Source: a virus
Lineage: Duplodnaviria > Caudoviricetes
Length of the DNA: 64,000 nt
Direction: 5' to 3' (one strand)
IMG/VR virus record: IMGVR_UViG_3300021400_000252
Part shown: positions 7,854 through 39,119 of the stretch, one piece after another
Position numbering within the stretch: position 1 is the first letter of the stretch
How the letters are laid out: every line of letters starts with the position of its first letter
The notes under the pieces: model-generated
The model's database searches: none
Seen by the model: only the letters and a program-made list of their open reading frames with translations
Told to the model about the DNA's origin: nothing
Translations under genes and position numbers: made by a program

Positions 7854-8156
7854 ATGAAGTTTGGAGAAATAAAAGGAATTTTAAATAATATAGAAAAGTT
7901 AGATACAACAAAACCTGATTGTACGCAGGAGTTTTCAATCTCATTAGCTGGAAGTCAAGATTATGTGTTAGCAAATCAGATTACAGGTACTGATTTAGAT
8001 GAACTAAGTGATTTTGAAGTAGTAGATATTGAGTCAGGAGATTTTGGATTAGTGGTAACTTTTAAGTATGTACCAACAATCATTCCTGCTTTCGGAGCTT
8101 TAGCAAAGCGCTATAGAGCACCATTACAATCTAAAACTTACTATCATTTAAATTAG
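7854..8156 (+). CDS. hypothetical protein
   Basis: GAGGTG RBS. Confidence 0.75.
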   Translation: MKFGEIKGILNNIEKLDTTKPDCTQEFSISLAGSQDYVLANQITGTDLDELSDFEVVDIESGDFGLVVTFKYVPTIIPAFGALAKRYRAPLQSKTYYHLN

Positions 8157-8198
8157 TAAATAATAAACCAGACTCTAAAAGAAAGGAGATGAAAAGTT

Positions 8199-8414
8199 AT
8201 GAAATTAGAAATTGCTTTTAGAAATGGAAACATGGAGAAGAAACAATTTAAAGATGAAAACGAAGCTAGAGATTACTTAAAATCTATTGGCACCGAAAGT
8301 ATTATCTATTTCGATGTTCTAGACGATAATGATAATTTCAACTTTGACTCTCCATTGCTTAACGAGTCCTACCCAAGACCGGCAGAAGATATAATTGAAT
8401 GACAAATAAACTAG
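8199..8414 (+). CDS. hypothetical protein (ends 8402 if TGA is a stop, 8414 if read through)
   Basis: AGGAG RBS; TGA 8400 followed four codons later by TAG inside the terminator stem. Confidence 0.7.
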
Positions 8415-8473
8415 GTTAATTACCTAGTTTTTTAATTGCTAAATTGGATAAACTGTTTAAAGGAGTTTTGATT

Positions 8474-8623
8474 ATGAAACTGTTTAAAATATTTTTCGCT
8501 GATGGAAATACTGTTCACAGATTTGCAGAAGATAAAGATACTTTAGTGAGTGAACTAAATGAAGAATTTCCAAACAGAGAAATTGTAATGATTACAGTTG
8601 TTGACGAAAAAGAAGAGTTTTAA
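8474..8623 (+). CDS. small hypothetical protein (49 aa), not in ORF track
   Basis: AGGAG RBS, MKLFKIFFADG...EEF; downstream of TGCTAAATT 8437. Confidence 0.7.
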   Translation: MKLFKIFFADGNTVHRFAEDKDTLVSELNEEFPNREIVMITVVDEKEEF

Positions 8624-8656
8624 TTGTATAATAACATATAGGAGATTTAGTCTAAT

Positions 8657-8893
8657 ATGAAGCTTCATGAACTTGTAGATAAGTTAACATCAGGACAATT
8701 TAATATCTATCATGAATATAAAGCTTACTTTAAAGGATCTATCATTAAGAAAGATTATGAAGATAAACCTAGATTTGACTTTGAATTAGAACCATATTCA
8801 GATTTCAGTGATTTAGATGTTGTGAGTTTTAACTTAGCTGTATCTTCAGACGTTTATGACCAAACTCCAGTTCTAGATATTGTTGTTAAGTAA
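8657..8893 (+). CDS. hypothetical protein
   Basis: AGGAG RBS; TTGTATAAT upstream. Confidence 0.75.
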   Translation: MKLHELVDKLTSGQFNIYHEYKAYFKGSIIKKDYEDKPRFDFELEPYSDFSDLDVVSFNLAVSSDVYDQTPVLDIVVK

Positions 8894-8906
8894 AGGAGAC
8901 TAAAAC

Positions 8907-9104
8907 ATGGAACAAGATATTAATGATTTATTAAAGACTTTAATTGTTGAGAAGGATCTAGAGATTAGAAACCTAAACATCACAAATTCAAATTTGGCTA
9001 ATCAAAATGAAGAGTTAAGGAAGAGAGTTCAAGAACTTCAAGACAGATTATTAAAGACTCAAACAACACCTGCACCTGTTGAAGAGATGCAAAGCAAGAA
9101 GTAG
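8907..9104 (+). CDS. coiled-coil hypothetical protein
   Basis: AGGAG RBS; heptad pattern. Confidence 0.75.
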   Translation: MEQDINDLLKTLIVEKDLEIRNLNITNSNLANQNEELRKRVQELQDRLLKTQTTPAPVEEMQSKK

Positions 9105-9115
9105 GAGGACTAAGT

Positions 9116-9409
9116 ATGGGAATAGTATTCGATAACTCTGCACAAAGAGTTCAGATTAAAGATCTATTGAATGATGAAGAGAACAGATTTATTTTAAATA
9201 GATTACAAGCAGGACGTTATAGAACTCCAGATGGATATGATGCACCTTATAGATTAAGTGATGAAGAATTAGTTAAATTACAAGATGAATATATTTATAT
9301 TCAAACAGATGGTGATTGTTGGTATGCTCGTTTCGAAAAACCTACAAGCGAAATCAGAGAGTTGTTAGGACTTCCAATCCAATCAGATAACCCATTTGAT
9401 ATGTTTTAA
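9116..9409 (+). CDS. hypothetical protein
   Basis: GGAGG RBS. Confidence 0.75.
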   Translation: MGIVFDNSAQRVQIKDLLNDEENRFILNRLQAGRYRTPDGYDAPYRLSDEELVKLQDEYIYIQTDGDCWYARFEKPTSEIRELLGLPIQSDNPFDMF

Positions 9410-9453
9410 GATAAAGAGACTAAACAGTCTCTTTTTTATTTTTATAACAGACT

Positions 9454-9520
9454 TCTCGGAGTCTATGTTTTAGGCAGATCGTTATAATTGAACTAAGAGA
9501 ACTTAGTTACCTACAAACCT
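9454..9520. repeat. intergenic A/B repeat cassette copy 3
   Basis: TCTCGGAGTCTATGTTT 9454-9470; AACTAAGAGAACTTAGTTACCTACAAACCT from 9491. Confidence 0.8.
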
Positions 9521-9615
9521 AACCTGAAAATATTTTAAAAAAGTTTTAAAAAGTATTTACATCCGCCATAAAACGTGGTATAATGTAATTGTAAAAAATA
9601 AAGGAGGAACAGAAT

Positions 9616-10053
9616 ATGAATAAATATTCACAATTCAATGCAGAACAAGTTTTAAAGGAAGTTAACAGATTACTTAATTGTTATTCAGGACCTTACCTAA
9701 TTGAGTATGTATGTAAGGAGTTAAGTATATTTGACTGGTGGCCTAGAACGTTATCTAAGTCAAGATTAAATCAAATGAAATCATTCTTAACACAAGCAAT
9801 CAAGAGAGGTTATAAAGGTTATGTATGTTTCAAGGTAGGCGATACTGGATGTGCAAATGGTATGTGGGCACATAAGGAAGAAAGTACTAATGGTTATTCT
9901 CCAGATGGTGATTGCTTATATCACTCATTCACTCCAGAATATACTTACTGGTCAGTTAATCAAAATGGAACTTGGTACCCTACTAATGAACAAAAGTTTG
10001 ACTCAGTTAAAACTTTAAAACAACTAGATGCATTGTATGAAAGTTTAAATTAA
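9616..10053 (+). CDS. hypothetical early protein
   Basis: GGAGG RBS; promoter at 9556. Confidence 0.8.
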   Translation: MNKYSQFNAEQVLKEVNRLLNCYSGPYLIEYVCKELSIFDWWPRTLSKSRLNQMKSFLTQAIKRGYKGYVCFKVGDTGCANGMWAHKEESTNGYSPDGDCLYHSFTPEYTYWSVNQNGTWYPTNEQKFDSVKTLKQLDALYESLN

Positions 10054-10100
10054 GAGGTGGAATATTCCACTTCTTTTTTTTATTCACTCAGGAGTTAGGA

Positions 10101-10166
10101 TTTCGGAGTCTATGTTTTGATTGTGAATTATAATTAAACTAAAAATAATTAGTCACCTACAAACCT
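10101..10166. repeat. intergenic A/B repeat cassette copy 4
   Basis: TTTCGGAGTCTATGTTTT 10101-10118; AACTAAAAATAATTAGTCACCTACAAACCT from 10137. Confidence 0.8.
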
Positions 10167-10261
10167 TGCCTGGATAAAAATAAAAATATTTTATAAAAAG
10201 TATTTACATATTTATTAAAACATGATATAATAATAATGTAGAAAGATAGAGGTGTATACTT

Positions 10262-10411
10262 ATGAAACCTAAAAAGAAAAGAAAGTTAAGAAATCCTATT
10301 CACTTTGCTATCATAACAAGTGGTACACATATGAACTTGACTAAGACAAAGCGAGAGAAAAAGGAACAAGAAGATAAGAAACAAAAGATGAAAGGTTGGA
10401 GTGAAGAATAA
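10262..10411 (+). CDS. small basic peptide (49 aa), not in ORF track
   Basis: GAGGTG RBS; MKPKKKRKLRNPIHF...; TAATG overlap with next gene. Confidence 0.7.
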   Translation: MKPKKKRKLRNPIHFAIITSGTHMNLTKTKREKKEQEDKKQKMKGWSEE

Positions 10412-10884
10412 TGAGTGAGATGGAAAGAATTAAAGCAGTCAGATTAAGATTACCTAAAGAAATTAGTTCTATGAAATTTAGAAATGAGAAGTATGATTGT
10501 GATGATGATATACAAGAATATCTAGATAGACCTGAGTTTAGTGATATCGTAGATTGGAAGAAGCCTGGAAAGTTCATGTCTAGTTATGGTGCAAGCTTAA
10601 TTAAGGTTAATGGAGACTGGCAATCTCTTCATGAATATTACATAGATTTTCTTTTAGATAGAGGATGGGATGAAGCAGGTGAATTTACTAAGTCTAGAGA
10701 ATTAACAGATAATGAATTAGTAAAATATATACCTAAGTTTAAAGCATTCTTCGAAGCCGTCAAATTGCCTTGTCCAGAATTAAGCAAGGAAACAATACGA
10801 GTTGTTGAGTATTGTTATTACAATGGAAGCGACGCACCAGTATGCTTCGATACAACAACAGATCCATTCTATGATGAAGTATAA
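10411..10884 (+). CDS. hypothetical protein
   Basis: Coupled ORF. Confidence 0.8.
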   Translation: MSEMERIKAVRLRLPKEISSMKFRNEKYDCDDDIQEYLDRPEFSDIVDWKKPGKFMSSYGASLIKVNGDWQSLHEYYIDFLLDRGWDEAGEFTKSRELTDNELVKYIPKFKAFFEAVKLPCPELSKETIRVVEYCYYNGSDAPVCFDTTTDPFYDEV

Positions 10885-10949
10885 AATAATTTAAAAAAAT
10901 ATAAAAAAGATATTTACATTTCAATTAATTTGGTGTATAATATAAATGT

Positions 10950-12150
10950 ATCAAGATGAAGCAAGCTTATAAATGTCCACTTCTATGTAGGAAGTCATGA
11001 GCCGAGGTAGTTGAGGAAGTATATAAGTTAGGGCTTGAAACTATCGTAAGAGACTATTCGCATACCGGTCAATACGTACAACTACTCTTATTAGTGGAGT
11101 TAATTCGAATATACAGCCATCTTGATCGTCTCTAAGAATATATAATATTAAATGTGAGAATAAACTATCGGTCCAGCATCTCCGAAAGATTCGGCCGAGT
11201 TTGATATTATATATTGCTAGAGGCGAAAACTATTCTGTGCGCCCTAAGCCGCGGAATAGAATAAACCTCTGGCGGTGGTGAGATTACTAAGAATATCTTA
11301 GTCAGTCTCTAAGAGTATATGAGCATATGCAGTTAAGTCTGCCCAACAAGTTCGTATACTGCTAGAGGCCGAGGACATAGTCGAGTAGGTGGCACGATTT
11401 AGATTTTTTCCTGCCGAGTGGAAAGATAAGTATCAGCTAGCGAAGGCCAAGCGAAAAGTCAGACAAGCGACCTGCTGATGCGATATTACCATATGAAATT
11501 TTAAACTAAATAATATTATAGCGGGTATGACGTAAAAGGTGTAGCACGCACAAGCAAGTATTTATACATGAGATTAATTCTCTAAGGCTAAAGGTTATGT
11601 AATTCCGGAATAAGTAATCAAAGCCTGTACCTTACAATTGTGGTGACAGTAGTCGTAATAAAGTTGCATCGACGCAACAAGCTAGAGTAATCTAGTGGGG
11701 ATGGCCCGACCGAGTCGTACCGGGTATAATGTTATTTAGTAATAGTTAATATCAAGACGAACAACATGTTAGATGCGCAGCTATTTGTTGAGAGGTTCGT
11801 GCTGGAGTGACAGTCTTCGGATAAGGATGAAGAGCAGAATATCCCATCGCTAGATGAATGCCGACATAAGAAATACTGATGGGGTCGGATAGAATCAACC
11901 AAAGATATTAACTTATTAATTAACTAATATTGCACTGAGCCCAGCCGTTAAACAGAAAGCAGGACCGCTGAAAGTAGCAGAACGGTGGTTAGTATAGGAG
12001 GCGCCAAAGCTAAGACCGATTCCACAAGCACACGACTCTGATAGCTACAGAGAGAGCTGGACCTTGTGCAATGTTAGTTAGTATTGAAACATCAATCATT
12101 CTTATACCCTCCTTTCTGAAAAAGCTTTAGATTAATTTCTAAAGTTTTTT
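10950..12150 (+). ncRNA. polycistronic cassette of structured non-coding RNA domains
   Basis: Promoter at 10913-10941 not followed by an RBS/ORF; GC visibly above background; successive closing helices (10950/11126, 11127/11225, 11305/11369, 11505/11740, 11744/11913, 11921/12080); terminator 12119-12150. Confidence 0.8.
12119..12150 (+). terminator. terminator closing the ncRNA cassette (possibly bidirectional)
   Basis: AAAAAGCTTTAGA-ttaatt-TCTAAAGTTTTTT. Confidence 0.75.
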
Positions 12151-12219
12151 CGTTTATATATTTACAAATCAATTGTTTTATGGTATAATATATATGAAGA
12201 TAGAAAGAGGTGTATAAGT

Positions 12220-12834
12220 ATGAAAGATAAATTAACATATGTTATGAGTTTTGTAGGTAAGAGAATTGTATTTGATGTAGGTTGGTTTGATTATTATACT
12301 GGAGTAATTAAATCAGTTGAAGTGACAGGAAACCAATATAAGTATGAAGTTAAATTAGTAGTAGATAATATTTTAAATTATGACAGCACGCATCGTGATG
12401 GTCACAGGCCAGATTTTAGAACTACTGATACAGTATTATTAGATAACTATTTAAACTATCATCGTCAACGCTGGGGCATGTGGGCATTAGCCGATTCTAA
12501 AGCAGGTAAAGATTTAATGTATAGAATTGAAAGAACATGGGATAAGAGAACTAAAGATAAATATCCAGATCCTTACGATCCAAACAGTTTAACAGAACCT
12601 AATAAAATGTTTTATGATATGTTAGTGGAAAGAAAGGAAGCAGGCCTACCAACCTATGTTAGAACTAAGTATCGCGATGATAGCGAAGACTATAGATTAG
12701 AAAAGGTTGAAGCTAAAGATTATAAAGTAGATGTATTTAGAGGTAAGGCTTATGTAGTATTTGCAACCATTGCCTATGCTCATAGAGTTAAAGCTACTAA
12801 CTTTAATAAGAAATATTTCTTTGAGGAAATGTAA
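12220..12834 (+). CDS. hypothetical early protein
   Basis: GAGGTG RBS; promoter at 12161. Confidence 0.8.
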   Translation: MKDKLTYVMSFVGKRIVFDVGWFDYYTGVIKSVEVTGNQYKYEVKLVVDNILNYDSTHRDGHRPDFRTTDTVLLDNYLNYHRQRWGMWALADSKAGKDLMYRIERTWDKRTKDKYPDPYDPNSLTEPNKMFYDMLVERKEAGLPTYVRTKYRDDSEDYRLEKVEAKDYKVDVFRGKAYVVFATIAYAHRVKATNFNKKYFFEEM

Positions 12835-12903
12835 AATAACTATTTACATTCCTTTTCTTTTATGATATAATATAATTGAAAATAAATAAGGAGGACTATA
12901 ATT

Positions 12904-13227
12904 ATGGAAACTAATATTAATAATTATACTTTTGTAGAAGTAGAGGAAAAGATTTGTGAATTTTGTGGTAGTATAAATAGTTATGATAAAACTAATACTT
13001 GTAGAAATTGTGGTGCTAATCAATATAGAATTAATAAGGTTAGAGTAAAAACATTTAAGCCAACTTCAAAGCCTATTATTAAATCTAATCCAGTGCCAAA
13101 GACTAGCTCAAAAAAAGATGAAGATGCAGATACTACTAGAAAAATTGTAGGAGGCGCAATAGCTGCTATTGTTATAGTTTTATTTATATATATACCAATT
13201 ATTACTCTTATAAGTATATATGGATAA
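12904..13227 (+). CDS. zinc-ribbon protein with C-terminal transmembrane anchor
   Basis: CEFCG...CRNCGA plus hydrophobic C-terminus. Confidence 0.8.
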   Translation: METNINNYTFVEVEEKICEFCGSINSYDKTNTCRNCGANQYRINKVRVKTFKPTSKPIIKSNPVPKTSSKKDEDADTTRKIVGGAIAAIVIVLFIYIPIITLISIYG

Positions 13228-13308
13228 ATAAAAAAGTTAGAGGAAAAGTATTTACATTTCCTCTTTTTTGTGGTATAATATAATTGTAATAAGATAGAGG
13301 TGATTAGA

Positions 13309-13542
13309 ATGAGTAGATGGTTATCTATCGCTCCAACATGGTGGGAGTTATTAAGAAGTATTTTAAAACAAGGATATGTATATATTAAATATAATGGTGA
13401 GATTCATCAATGCAAAGTAGAGAATAAAGGTTGGGAAGATTATCCTAGACTTGAATTAGCTTGGCATTATACTTATCCTATTAAACTAATTGAAAGAGAT
13501 TATAAAATTACTTGGTCTAAGAATAGAGAAGACTTAGAATAA
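13309..13542 (+). CDS. hypothetical protein (DYxxTW C-terminal motif)
   Basis: GAGGTG RBS; ends DYKITWSKNREDLE. Confidence 0.75.
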   Translation: MSRWLSIAPTWWELLRSILKQGYVYIKYNGEIHQCKVENKGWEDYPRLELAWHYTYPIKLIERDYKITWSKNREDLE

Positions 13543-13559
13543 GAAGGAGGACTAATTAT

Positions 13560-13871
13560 ATGTTTATAAATACTTATGTAGAGAAGGATGTATATAGTGC
13601 TGGTTCAGGCTGGGAAAGAAAGGTGTGCTTAACAGGTAATAAGATTAATTCTAATATTATTACTGAAGTTCAATCTTTAGATAAAGATAAGGTAAATCAA
13701 TATGAATATAATAATTATGTAAAGGTAATAACTAATCAAAAGAAAGGTAAATCTTCATTTGGTTTTATTGGAGCTTTATTTGTATTAGTGTTTCCAATGT
13801 GGCATTCATATTCATATAAAGAGTATATTGTTTCTAAACAGGATTTAGATAAGGTTATTAATAATAACTAA
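13560..13871 (+). CDS. hypothetical protein with hydrophobic segment
   Basis: GGAGG RBS. Confidence 0.75.
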   Translation: MFINTYVEKDVYSAGSGWERKVCLTGNKINSNIITEVQSLDKDKVNQYEYNNYVKVITNQKKGKSSFGFIGALFVLVFPMWHSYSYKEYIVSKQDLDKVINNN

Positions 13872-13911
13872 TATTATTGTTGTATAAATAATTATAAGAG
13901 GTGAGTAATAT

Positions 13912-14250
13912 ATGGCTGATAAAAGACCGCTTGAAAAGATAGTAACAATAGCAGCAGGACCTATAAGTTTAGTTCCTTTTGAAGATAAAAATAATGTACA
14001 GTATTATAAAATAATAACTCACGCTCATAATGGTAAGGTATTAAAAAGAAAGTATGCTGTATTAGCAACTATCCGTAGAACAACTAGGAACTGTACTATT
14101 ATATTTCAAGGCGGCTATGCTATAACTCCAGAAGATTGTCATGCTATACATATTATGTTCATGCATATCTCTAATTGGGACTATTGGTATAACTTCCAAA
14201 GAAACGGATGGTATGGAACTTGCCTACCTAAACAAGAGGAGAGTGAATAG
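13912..14250 (+). CDS. hypothetical protein
   Basis: GAGGTG RBS. Confidence 0.75.
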   Translation: MADKRPLEKIVTIAAGPISLVPFEDKNNVQYYKIITHAHNGKVLKRKYAVLATIRRTTRNCTIIFQGGYAITPEDCHAIHIMFMHISNWDYWYNFQRNGWYGTCLPKQEESE

Positions 14251-14251
14251 T

Positions 14252-14437
14252 ATGACATTAATAGATTATTTAAATAAAGAAGCTGAGCTTAAATTAAAGC
14301 TACAAATGATAGATGATATATCTCGTAAGTATAATAAAGCAGATACTGAAAGCATGATTATTCATGAAGGCTTAAATGCTTTATTTAAAGAAACAGAAAA
14401 GGAACTAAAAAAGATAGAAAAGAAATTAGGTGTTTAA
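14252..14437 (+). CDS. small helical hypothetical protein
   Basis: ATG 14252 after GGAG. Confidence 0.7.
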   Translation: MTLIDYLNKEAELKLKLQMIDDISRKYNKADTESMIIHEGLNALFKETEKELKKIEKKLGV

Positions 14438-14438
14438 T

Positions 14439-14783
14439 ATGTTAAAGATAACTCATATAAAAAGACATGGTCTACAAGGAGAACATCAAACAAACCTTAA
14501 GACAGGTCGAGTTAACTATATAGGTCTATGTTCTTTTAGTCATTTAGATAGAATAAATTTTGTAAGAGATGGCTTGCACTATTCTATACAGATGGATGAT
14601 ATAGATGGAGATTACCAAGTAGCAGTGAGATGTAAGGAAGATAAGTATTTCTTTAAGCATCTTGGCTATGGCACTCAAACATTTATAGATTTATTATTTG
14701 GTTGGGATTGGCAGACTAAAGGAGCTACATATCAAACATTCCCTACTGATAAATTAGAAGCAGTTATATTTGGAGGTAAGTAA
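14439..14783 (+). CDS. hypothetical protein
   Basis: Coupled ORF. Confidence 0.75.
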   Translation: MLKITHIKRHGLQGEHQTNLKTGRVNYIGLCSFSHLDRINFVRDGLHYSIQMDDIDGDYQVAVRCKEDKYFFKHLGYGTQTFIDLLFGWDWQTKGATYQTFPTDKLEAVIFGGK

Positions 14784-14784
14784 T

Positions 14785-15117
14785 ATGCAAGATTATAATG
14801 AAGCATTAGAAACATTAAAAGATATGTTAATTGGTAATGGTGTAAATGATAATATCAACGATTATGTTGATAACTTGATTTTGCCTATCAAGCAAGCACT
14901 TAACGAAAAGGAAAGTAAACTTCTTATAGCAAAGAAATATGGATTCTTTGATGGATATAGTATGTGGAGAACAGATGAATTTATAGTTGACTATGATAGC
15001 GTAAGAAATGAATTTTGTTTAAGAAGTATTACTAATGGATATACACTTGGTAGAACAAGATTTTATGAGAGTGATTATAAGAAGACCTGGTGGCTTAAGG
15101 AAGACATGAGCAAATAA
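14785..15117 (+). CDS. hypothetical protein (DYxxTW C-terminal motif)
   Basis: GGAGG RBS; ends DYKKTWWLKEDMSK. Confidence 0.75.
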   Translation: MQDYNEALETLKDMLIGNGVNDNINDYVDNLILPIKQALNEKESKLLIAKKYGFFDGYSMWRTDEFIVDYDSVRNEFCLRSITNGYTLGRTRFYESDYKKTWWLKEDMSK

Positions 15118-38158: not shown

Positions 38159-39119
38159 AATAGAATTAAGAAAAAAGATCAGAAACAATTTAAATCACAT
38201 TATCGTACTAACAATACATCCTAGAATGGGATATGATTGTGAATTTGTAGATGACAAGCTAAGAGTAAATTATAAAACTATTGATGGTAAATTATATGCT
38301 TCTGATGAATTTACATTAGATGATTTTGGAGAAAAGTGGGATTTCGAGAAACCAGATATAGACGATTCTCTTAATGATGTAGATATAACTGCAGCTGAAT
38401 TAATTGAAATCACTAAGCAAGCTGAAGATGAAAAATATTCTAAACATAAGCAAGCAGTTGATGAATGCGTAAATGATATAAAAAGAGATGTGGCTCAACA
38501 TATTAGATTTGCAGCTATGAGTGGAGCATATTCATATACTCCACAAATTAATATAAAGGTTCGTAAATATATTAGAGAAAGAAGTCTTTGGGAAGAATTT
38601 GAAAAGGATTTTGAAAACACTGTTTACATGAGATTATGTGAATTTTATAATCCAAAAGGATTTACTGTATCACTTAATAAAGGTTATGCAGAAACCACAT
38701 TAGCAGTTTTAAGCTGGGATAGATCAAAAAGTGAAGCAGAAGATGAGTCTATTCAAACACCTACTCCAATTCAAACAAATGAAGATTTAAATAAGATCTT
38801 AAAAGATGCTTGTGGTGGAATTTCAAGAACTCCATTTGATTTACCACGTTATAATTTTCATAAAGCTGAAGGATTACATCCAGATTTAGTTTGTCCATAT
38901 TGTGGTGCTAGACATTATGAAGAAGGTGTAACAATGCAATCATTAGCTTATGTTCCAAGAATTTATAAAGATGGAATTTTACAAGATACTCCAAATCCTA
39001 ATTGGACAATAATACATTATCGTTGTTTAGAATGTGGAAAACAATTTGAAACAAAGAATGGTAAAATTCAAAAGATTGAAAATGTAGTCACAGCACAGGA
39101 TGGTGATATAAATGTATAA
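38151..39119 (+). CDS. multidomain hypothetical protein with C-terminal zinc ribbon
   Basis: CPYCG...CLECGK. Confidence 0.75.
   Translation: MNKIELRKKIRNNLNHIIVLTIHPRMGYDCEFVDDKLRVNYKTIDGKLYASDEFTLDDFGEKWDFEKPDIDDSLNDVDITAAELIEITKQAEDEKYSKHKQAVDECVNDIKRDVAQHIRFAAMSGAYSYTPQINIKVRKYIRERSLWEEFEKDFENTVYMRLCEFYNPKGFTVSLNKGYAETTLAVLSWDRSKSEAEDESIQTPTPIQTNEDLNKILKDACGGISRTPFDLPRYNFHKAEGLHPDLVCPYCGARHYEEGVTMQSLAYVPRIYKDGILQDTPNPNWTIIHYRCLECGKQFETKNGKIQKIENVVTAQDGDINV

Follow-up and report, generated by a model that had tools for sequence, protein, structure and literature searches.

A probable new family of noncoding RNA operon in phages of animal guts, with a folded leader and exchangeable cargo

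The stretch of DNA analysed here (IMG/VR record IMGVR_UViG_3300021400_000252, a virus of the Duplodnaviria; Caudoviricetes) is 64,000 nucleotides (nt) long and is referred to as the window. It carries phage genes, among them nrdD, an RNA ligase gene and a GlmS-like gene. Our subject is a cassette of about 1.2 kb at positions 10945-12158, which very probably is transcribed into a structured RNA that encodes no protein and belongs to a new family, built from a leader and exchangeable cargo.

The cassette is delimited by signals on the + strand. The early promoter that an initial annotation of the sequence had proposed stood up to inspection: it scores 11/12 and is one of 16 perfect copies of TTTACA-N17-TATAAT between positions 948 and 17136, all of them on the + strand, as opposed to 4.5 expected by chance. 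This part of the genome is therefore the early region of the phage, served by the host polymerase. Each of the 16 copies precedes a small gene or module, and the sole further copy in the window lies at 38623. The position of the promoter is kept in all relatives. At the other end, the closing terminator noted before is present, and the relatives carry a hairpin followed by a U run of differing sequence at the equivalent place. As had been claimed, the cassette contains no + strand open reading frame of at least 30 amino acids (aa) under translation table 11; under table 4, or with TAG read as glutamine, all frames are at most 60 aa long on the + strand and at most 83 aa on the - strand, and none is convincing. 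The reported enrichment in guanine and cytosine (GC) is likewise real, with a content of 0.38-0.44 across 11000-12050 versus 0.23-0.35 in the flanks (~29% around). A separate promoter (12161-12189) is situated between the terminator and the next gene. The region 10945-12158 is thus predicted to be one early transcription unit encoding RNA only, with the following features:

10913-10941, + strand: early sigma-70-type promoter, TTTACA-17-TATAAT, start predicted near 10948
10945-11127, + strand: leader, the family-defining 5' element, with helix P1 (10950-10958/11118-11126), stacked P2-P4, a central hairpin and a 3' strand that is invariant and contains the palindrome UUCGAA
11127-11225, + strand: S stem 1, with the invariant lower stem CGUCUCUA/UAGAGGCG, a 2x2 internal loop, an upper stem that covaries and 47 nt of inserted cargo
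11230-11259, + strand: hairpin A, a 12-bp GC-rich stem, kept at 92-97% in the relatives L009, L047 and L050
11260-11369, + strand: linker hairpin (11280-11303) and S stem 2 (11305-11369), with the lower stem and loop of S stem 1 (repeats D6 and D7) and another insert
11370-11500, + strand: branched region with hairpin 11430-11481, found in the window lineage only (window, L052, L051)
11505-11740, + strand: module B, a 24-pair clamp (16 bp, two isolated pairs, 7-bp stack) around a multi-hairpin core
11744-11913, + strand: module D, a 10-bp clamp with a weakly folded interior, present or absent as a whole unit
11920-12080, + strand: module C, a 15-bp clamp with further pairs, its outer helix resembling that of B (repeats D2 and D3)
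12106-12118, + strand: single-stranded CU-rich tail with the core CCUCCUUUC at 12108-12116, unpaired and directly before the terminator
12117-12158, + strand: intrinsic terminator, a 15-bp stem (12117-12152) followed by a U run

All helices listed in the initial annotation were located (10950-10958/11118-11126, 11127-11225, 11230-11259, 11305-11369, 11430-11437/11474-11481, 11505/11740, 11744-11753/11904-11913 and 11921/12080). The fold energy is -343 kcal/mol for the + strand versus -291 kcal/mol for the - strand. Stability of the individual parts was expressed as z relative to dinucleotide shuffles and amounts to -5.4 for 11127-11500, -5.1 (-5.05) for module B (11505-11740), -3.1 (-3.08) for module C (11920-12080), -0.9 (-0.87) for module D (11744-11913) and -0.03 for the leader (10945-11128). 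An RNA made from the + strand is indicated by G.U pairs that never vary in the leader and module B, by an invariant U.G pair in the S stem and by the better fold of that strand. The covariation among relatives that had been suggested as a check is found in the leader, in module B and in the S stem, and the domains once drawn as self-contained do appear and vanish at their closing stems in these relatives. A structured + strand noncoding RNA composed of self-contained domains is supported by the sequence data.

The first ~180 nt are predicted to be the family-defining leader, which heads tRNA genes in relatives; this role, and the exchangeable nature of the remainder as cargo, had not been recognized in the initial annotation. 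A covariance model (R1) built from nine leader variants detected full-length copies in 13 distinct loci, including L062 and L064, whose P1, P3 and P4 are quite different in sequence. In the alignment of the 13 sequences 98.8% of the cells are paired, and 16 of the 34 pairs have changed on both sides. None of 500 shuffles reached any of five measures, and slid controls paired at 29-47%. It is this covariation that supports the leader, its fold stability being ordinary (z -0.03). The central hairpin (about 11040-11100) is hypervariable and occurs in at least four unrelated versions.

Relatives were gathered via the contigs that carry homologues of the two flanking proteins (44 and 23, respectively, in metagenomes) and by word scans with the leader sequence. 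About 15 related loci were obtained in this way. Their sources are gut samples of animals, sheep and bovine among them, as well as IMG/VR contigs 166-237 kb in length, and one flanking-protein homologue resides on a 245-kb contig. To judge from these contigs, the carriers are AT-rich large (jumbo) phages of animal guts. The flanking-gene relatives L006, L007/L008, L015 and L059 have no cassette beside those genes. Neither the cassette nor the first 20 kb matched any DNA in the phage GenBank collection, and a scan of GTDB genomes with the leader word returned two matches in coding DNA of 52% GC, which were judged to be chance.

Within the cassettes, the relatives differ in whole units. L002 keeps 10885-11143, 11502-11744 and 11906-12216 at 95-97% identity, while 412 unrelated nt replace 11144-11501 and 11745-11905 is lacking. 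In L039 the only stretch replaced is 11260-11501. L010 is without module C (11921-12080) as well as module D, and L052, at 97-99% identity to the window, carries an additional module of ~190 nt ahead of B. The cassette of L038 extends to 1.6 kb, and L009 and L061 represent minimal forms of ~300 nt that consist of the leader, one or two hairpins, the tail and the terminator. Altogether, the cargo zone holds between zero and at least seven modules clamped by long stems, or else tRNA or tRNA-like genes. Gain, loss and replacement of modules fall exactly at the closing stems, and because the break points coincide with the stems, the domains first recognized in the window are real units. The fixed part of the family is the host-type early promoter together with the folded leader of ~180 nt, behind which the variable cargo zone lies; a single-stranded tail and a terminator close the majority of versions.

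At L049/L043 the leader is followed by four tRNAs (class II Ser-like, Gln, Trp and Met; 50-63 bits in Rfam). This early leader-tRNA operon (L049:2589-3211, - strand) is on the same contig as L043, a 52-kb phage contig. Its first tRNA was missed by ARAGORN and scores 49.8 bits in Rfam, and a stretch of ~118 nt between the Gln and Trp tRNAs has no assignment. In L062 and L064 the leader leads directly into the stem CGUCGUAGU/ACUACGGCG (CGUC...GGCG), which encloses a tRNA-like RNA of 46-47 bits:

L062:4630-4745, - strand: stem-enclosed tRNA-like RNA
L064:5245-5345, - strand: stem-enclosed tRNA-like RNA

The tRNA-like RNA of L062 has an abnormal anticodon loop and is given as 'tRNA-???' by ARAGORN. 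Since the same leader heads tRNAs, tRNA-like RNAs or modules, it appears to head stable-RNA operons whose cargo is interchangeable. The tRNA genes expected of a tRNA operon occur only in the relatives L049, L062 and L064; ARAGORN detected no tRNA in the window, and the cassette has no Rfam tRNA match at E up to 10.

Directly behind the leader, S stem 1 forms a helix of 8 + 14 bp around its 2x2 loop, in which AG (11135-11136) stands opposite GC (11216-11217) as an invariant A.C/G.G arrangement. Across 14 distinct instances of the S stem, positions 3-11 are invariant, an invariant U.G pair is present, and positions 12-21 are always paired, using two to four pair types each. The inserts atop the stem exist in six unrelated versions. 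In a motif scan that covered the 64-kb window and, beyond the cassettes, ~190 kb of related loci, S stems were confined to cassettes and to the transcribed strand. A scan of IMG/VR with the S stem pattern gave 20 matches, none of which continues into a longer helix and most of which lie in coding sequence; this count lies within the number estimated by hand for a pattern of that size. In L047 hairpin A occupies a different place with respect to the S unit that follows, and the block of linker and S stem 2 has unrelated RNA in its place in L002 and L039. In the minimum-energy fold, S stem 2 has its 3' strand (11362-11369) paired with CCUCUGGC (11266-11273) and not with its 5' partner, which may represent an alternative conformation. 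A look-alike of int-alpA in 11370-11500 was rejected (21.9 bits versus a cut-off of 35.8).

Module B could be compared in six sequences, with 93.5% of the cells paired, 14 of 65 pairs changed on both sides and none of 500 shuffles reaching this result. Its core has diverged in L038 and L047 and is still homologous, and L009 retains the clamp only, as a bare hairpin. Module D is present in the window and in L052 and missing from L002, L039, L010 and L038; contigs from RNA sequencing runs cover it. Where module C is lacking, in L010, the junction falls inside AAUGUUA, a sequence common to the clamps of B and C. A further module of ~190 nt, termed X2, is closed by UGGGGC/GCCCCA, is common to many relatives and does not occur in the window. 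Compensatory changes are seen in it, such as that from GCAAG/CUUGC to GUAAG/CUUAC, and it was located at these places:

L002:3200-3400: X2
L039:5940-6125: X2
L052:3414-3606, - strand: X2
L063:1187-1395: X2
L072:258-450: X2

When IMG/VR was scanned with the pattern of the module B core, 24 matches were obtained, and L072 was the only true relative. An unrelated viral contig of 49% GC contains a look-alike of this core (L066:403-442; UAAGGCUAAAG, hairpin, UAAAGCCUGUA), with a terminator-like hairpin on one side and the start of a gene on the other. The likeness may be fortuitous or reflect a small motif in common.

The CU-rich tail is kept in eight lineages, namely the window, L052, L002, L010, L039, L038, L009 and, as CUCCUUUC, L061. 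Its core CCUCCUUUC, which equals the 3' end of Bacillota 16S rRNA, is the complement of the usual ribosome-binding site of this phage: a match of at least 6 nt to the complement of the tail occurs at -22 to -4 of 31 of the 110 phage open reading frames, compared with 2% of random places. The tail thus has the make-up of an anti-Shine-Dalgarno (anti-SD) seed, unpaired, rich in C and U, placed before the terminator and complementary to ribosome-binding sites, and its likeness to 16S rRNA offers a direct link to translation that is open to test. A Shine-Dalgarno-like sequence in module C (CAGAAAGCAGG, 11953-11963) is 91% complementary to the tail (12108-12118) and could mask it in cis. A similar hairpin, GAAAGGU/ACCUUUAC, is found near the 3' end in L062.

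Public sequencing data yielded 20 runs that contain the stretch, six of them RNA libraries, from several studies. Four RNA runs were compared over 8000-15000. In run X18 the cassette is represented by a contig of 866 nt from S1 to C at a depth of 384, with flank contigs at 9-24, and in run X8 by a contig of 852 nt at a depth of 92, with flank contigs at 3-11; contig depth cannot rank genes, and DNA may be present in RNA runs. Runs X7 and X6 gave a smaller contrast or none, with near-equal depths that allow no conclusion, and the same holds for the parts of the stretch that have no cover in RNA runs. These data, in which X8 and X18 are ruminant metatranscriptomes, are a weak hint that the cassette RNA is abundant.

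The reading that we tentatively prefer, and consider quite possible, is that of a leader-headed stable-RNA operon with exchangeable cargo, the precursor of which is processed at stems of at least 20 bp in the manner of tRNA and rRNA operons. The transcript would be handled like such an operon, and a host ribonuclease (RNase) specific for double strands, of the RNase III type, would cut the clamp stems of at least 20 bp, which comprise the AU-rich clamps of modules B and C as well as the S stems, where the invariant A.C/G.G loop is located. Cutting would release the module RNAs, which would be stable and accumulate. The repeated clamp sequences could at the same time provide homology for recombination, by which the phages would gain, lose and swap cargo. 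The leader may serve the operon, either by keeping RNA polymerase processive across many hairpins or by protecting the 5' end, and the tail could pair with ribosome-binding sites. From the early-region context, a role of the cargo RNAs in host take-over or counter-defence seems likely. Support for processing comes from the leader-tRNA forms (L049), because tRNAs need excision to work.

Known systems offer parallels to such an arrangement. From the T4 tRNA region, which includes the species 1 and 2 RNAs, several stable RNAs are cut from a precursor made from one promoter, and some of them are not tRNAs. The proposed operon would share the single promoter driving several stable structured RNAs; it differs in that the window is without any tRNA, and to our knowledge the T4 cluster has no conserved folded leader or repeated clamp stems. 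RNase III stalks of rRNA operons and of the early RNAs of T7 and SP82 are stems of about two turns, some with a conserved internal loop, that separate polycistronic units. Long stems bracket units here as well, and we infer their cleavage; the invariant A.C/G.G loop found in S stems, in contrast, corresponds to none of the processing signals that could be checked. Helices of about 20 bp or more enclose S1, B (24 pairs) and C (15 bp plus further pairs), and D has only 10 bp. Among the base-pairing small RNAs of Bacillota, some, such as RoxS/RsaE, carry C/U-rich seeds next to the terminator. The unpaired CU-rich stretch before the terminator and its complementarity to Shine-Dalgarno sequences are shared with them, whereas the seed of the cassette stands at the end of a transcript 0.3-1.6 kb long that also has cargo and a 5' domain under conservation, and it copies the 3' end of 16S rRNA over 9-10 nt.

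Several points weigh against the processed-operon reading. The folds of the leader and of module D are not unusually stable (z -0.03 and -0.87), and the clamp of D is only 10 bp long. The leader alignment was fitted to the model structure, which favours that structure, and the comparative sets are small (6-13 sequences). Copies of module C, at 96-97% identity, vary too little for covariation to be assessed, and L049 and L063 have no tail. Furthermore, contigs of ~860 nt from the RNA runs cross several module junctions, so long forms exist; being assembled contigs, they cannot show RNA ends.

This last observation would fit a second reading, the main and a serious rival although we regard it as somewhat unlikely, according to which the cassette encodes one giant RNA that works intact, comparable to GOLLD or ROOL. 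The leader and the 3' tail would form the two ends of one molecule, and the modules would then be peripheral expansions, as in the expansion segments of rRNA, and self-assembly or ribosome binding might be involved. It would suit this reading that the leader and the tail with the terminator are kept while the middle grows from ~60 nt (L061, L009) to 1.3 kb (L038), that the 852-866-nt contigs bridge S1, A, B, D and C, and that the invariant palindromic UUCGAA in the leader could pair between molecules. GOLLD is likewise divided into two parts: its 3' region is universally conserved, its 5' region is less so, tRNAs sometimes lie in the variable part, and ribosomes were bound in pull-downs (bioRxiv 10.1101/2024.12.08.627333). 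Set against this are the cargo, which is unrelated between close relatives and would not easily fit a single three-dimensional machine that is conserved, the ordinary tRNAs of L049, which need excision, the absence of the tail in L049 and L063, and the fact that no conserved long-range pairing was found between modules. In addition, there is no match to the GOLLD or ROOL models.

The analogy to ROOL and GOLLD that the initial annotation had drawn consequently holds in part. Phage-borne location, linkage to tRNAs and the combination of a conserved domain with a variable region are shared, and membership is not, as no covariance-model match was obtained at E up to 10. GOLLD (RF01998) resembles the cassette as a large, phage-borne, structured RNA that is linked to tRNAs and has a conserved and a variable part; tRNAs in the variable region in a phage context are found in L049, L062 and L064, the window being without a tRNA. 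Both also have a link to the ribosome, by pull-down for GOLLD and by the anti-SD-like tail here. The polarity, however, is reversed, with a conserved 5' part of 180 nt here and a conserved 3' region in GOLLD, and the variable part of the cassette consists of clamped, exchangeable modules. ROOL was described from the rumen in a phage and tRNA neighbourhood as a large and ornate RNA (PMC5737381). Rumen origin, the phage and tRNA neighbourhood and size are points of likeness to ROOL (RF03087); the differences are the lack of a match to its model and the length of the cassette, which through loss or replacement of modules varies from ~300 nt to 1.6 kb among close relatives.

A more far-reaching version of the processed operon would see a phage 'RNA cargo platform', in which the leader and the invariant clamp stems form a chassis for expression and processing, and unrelated structured RNAs (tRNAs, tRNA mimics and other folds) are loaded and swapped through recombination at the clamps, much as in an integron, for the purposes of host take-over or counter-defence. 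We consider this unlikely.

It is improbable that the modules represent selfish elements of small size, bounded by terminal inverted repeats and either similar to miniature inverted-repeat transposable elements or of a kind that inserts into hairpins, which have accumulated in a permissive noncoding unit of which only the short leader-tail RNA serves the phage. Inverted repeats do bound each module, modules are polymorphic in presence and absence with exact boundaries, hairpin A and the linker-S block follow each other in a different order in the window and in L047, minimal leader-tail forms exist, and module D folds no better than chance. Selfish elements would nevertheless be difficult to reconcile with the confinement of modules and S stems to cassettes: nhmmer and motif scans placed the leader, module B and the S stem inside cassettes only, and no other copy of any module or of the S stem turned up in the 64-kb window or in ~190 kb of related loci beyond the cassettes. 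The insertion of module D shows no clear target-site duplication, and there is no transposase near the cassette. Moreover, the invariant G.U pairs and the compensatory changes in B and in the upper stems of S point to selection on RNA pairing and not on DNA repeats alone.

That there is no RNA gene at all, and that the many inverted repeats reflect a DNA-level element (a replication or packaging site), a long 5' untranslated region of the next gene or a host for an antisense peptide, is very improbable given the terminator and the separate promoter (12161-12189) before the next gene, G.U pairing that works on the + strand only, and a leader that heads tRNA genes in relatives. The candidate antisense peptide, for which AGGAGG on the - strand is followed after 8 nt by ATG at 12099, was rejected, as L061 has not retained this start codon and L010 has lost most of the reading frame.

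The search against Rfam recommended in the initial annotation gave no match at the gathering score in the window. At E up to 10, 10850-12250 returned only sub-threshold rows and no ROOL, GOLLD or tRNA; the weak rows MIR7994, PK-HAV and DLEU1 were below the cut-off and judged to be chance. The relatives L002, L009, L038 and L039 had no ROOL or GOLLD match, nor anything else in Rfam. A literature search found nothing relevant to this RNA family. Fremin et al. 2023 (PMC10690425) described 8,495 candidate models of viral structured RNAs of 29-151 nt. Set against Rfam, the content of which excludes these models, the cassettes constitute a predicted new family of phage RNA operon. The large phage RNAs GOLLD and ROOL are abundant and linked to tRNAs, and the present locus would be a third, unrelated solution of the same kind. 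Its natural variants, from a 300-nt core to 1.6 kb with swaps at defined stems, amount to a ready-made deletion and replacement series and so make the locus easier to study than these RNAs. One leader that heads plain tRNAs, tRNA mimics or other RNAs suggests that these types of cargo are interchangeable for the phage, and this bears on the question why phages carry tRNAs beside giant RNAs.

The proteins encoded on either side of the cassette belong to no Pfam or PHROG family. For the upstream protein of 157 aa, a structural model with a predicted local distance difference test score (pLDDT) of 85 was obtained, which has no match in the PDB at E up to 0.001; the downstream protein has no tblastn match in the phage GenBank collection. 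The gene directly after the cassette (12220-12834) encodes a protein of 204 aa (model pLDDT 78.7). Residues 1-95 are modelled as a small beta-barrel that resembles Sm/LSm proteins (Z 6.7, root-mean-square deviation 3.1 A over 70 residues), yet chromo-barrel/Tudor folds follow at Z 6.4-5.4. As a weak lead from the predicted structure, this protein may be taken as a candidate RNA-binding partner. In the same early region, relatives carry a Tad3-family gene (PF25185, L006:234-866) and a Lar restriction-alleviation gene (PF14354, L002:6853-7095), and both fit an anti-defence neighbourhood.

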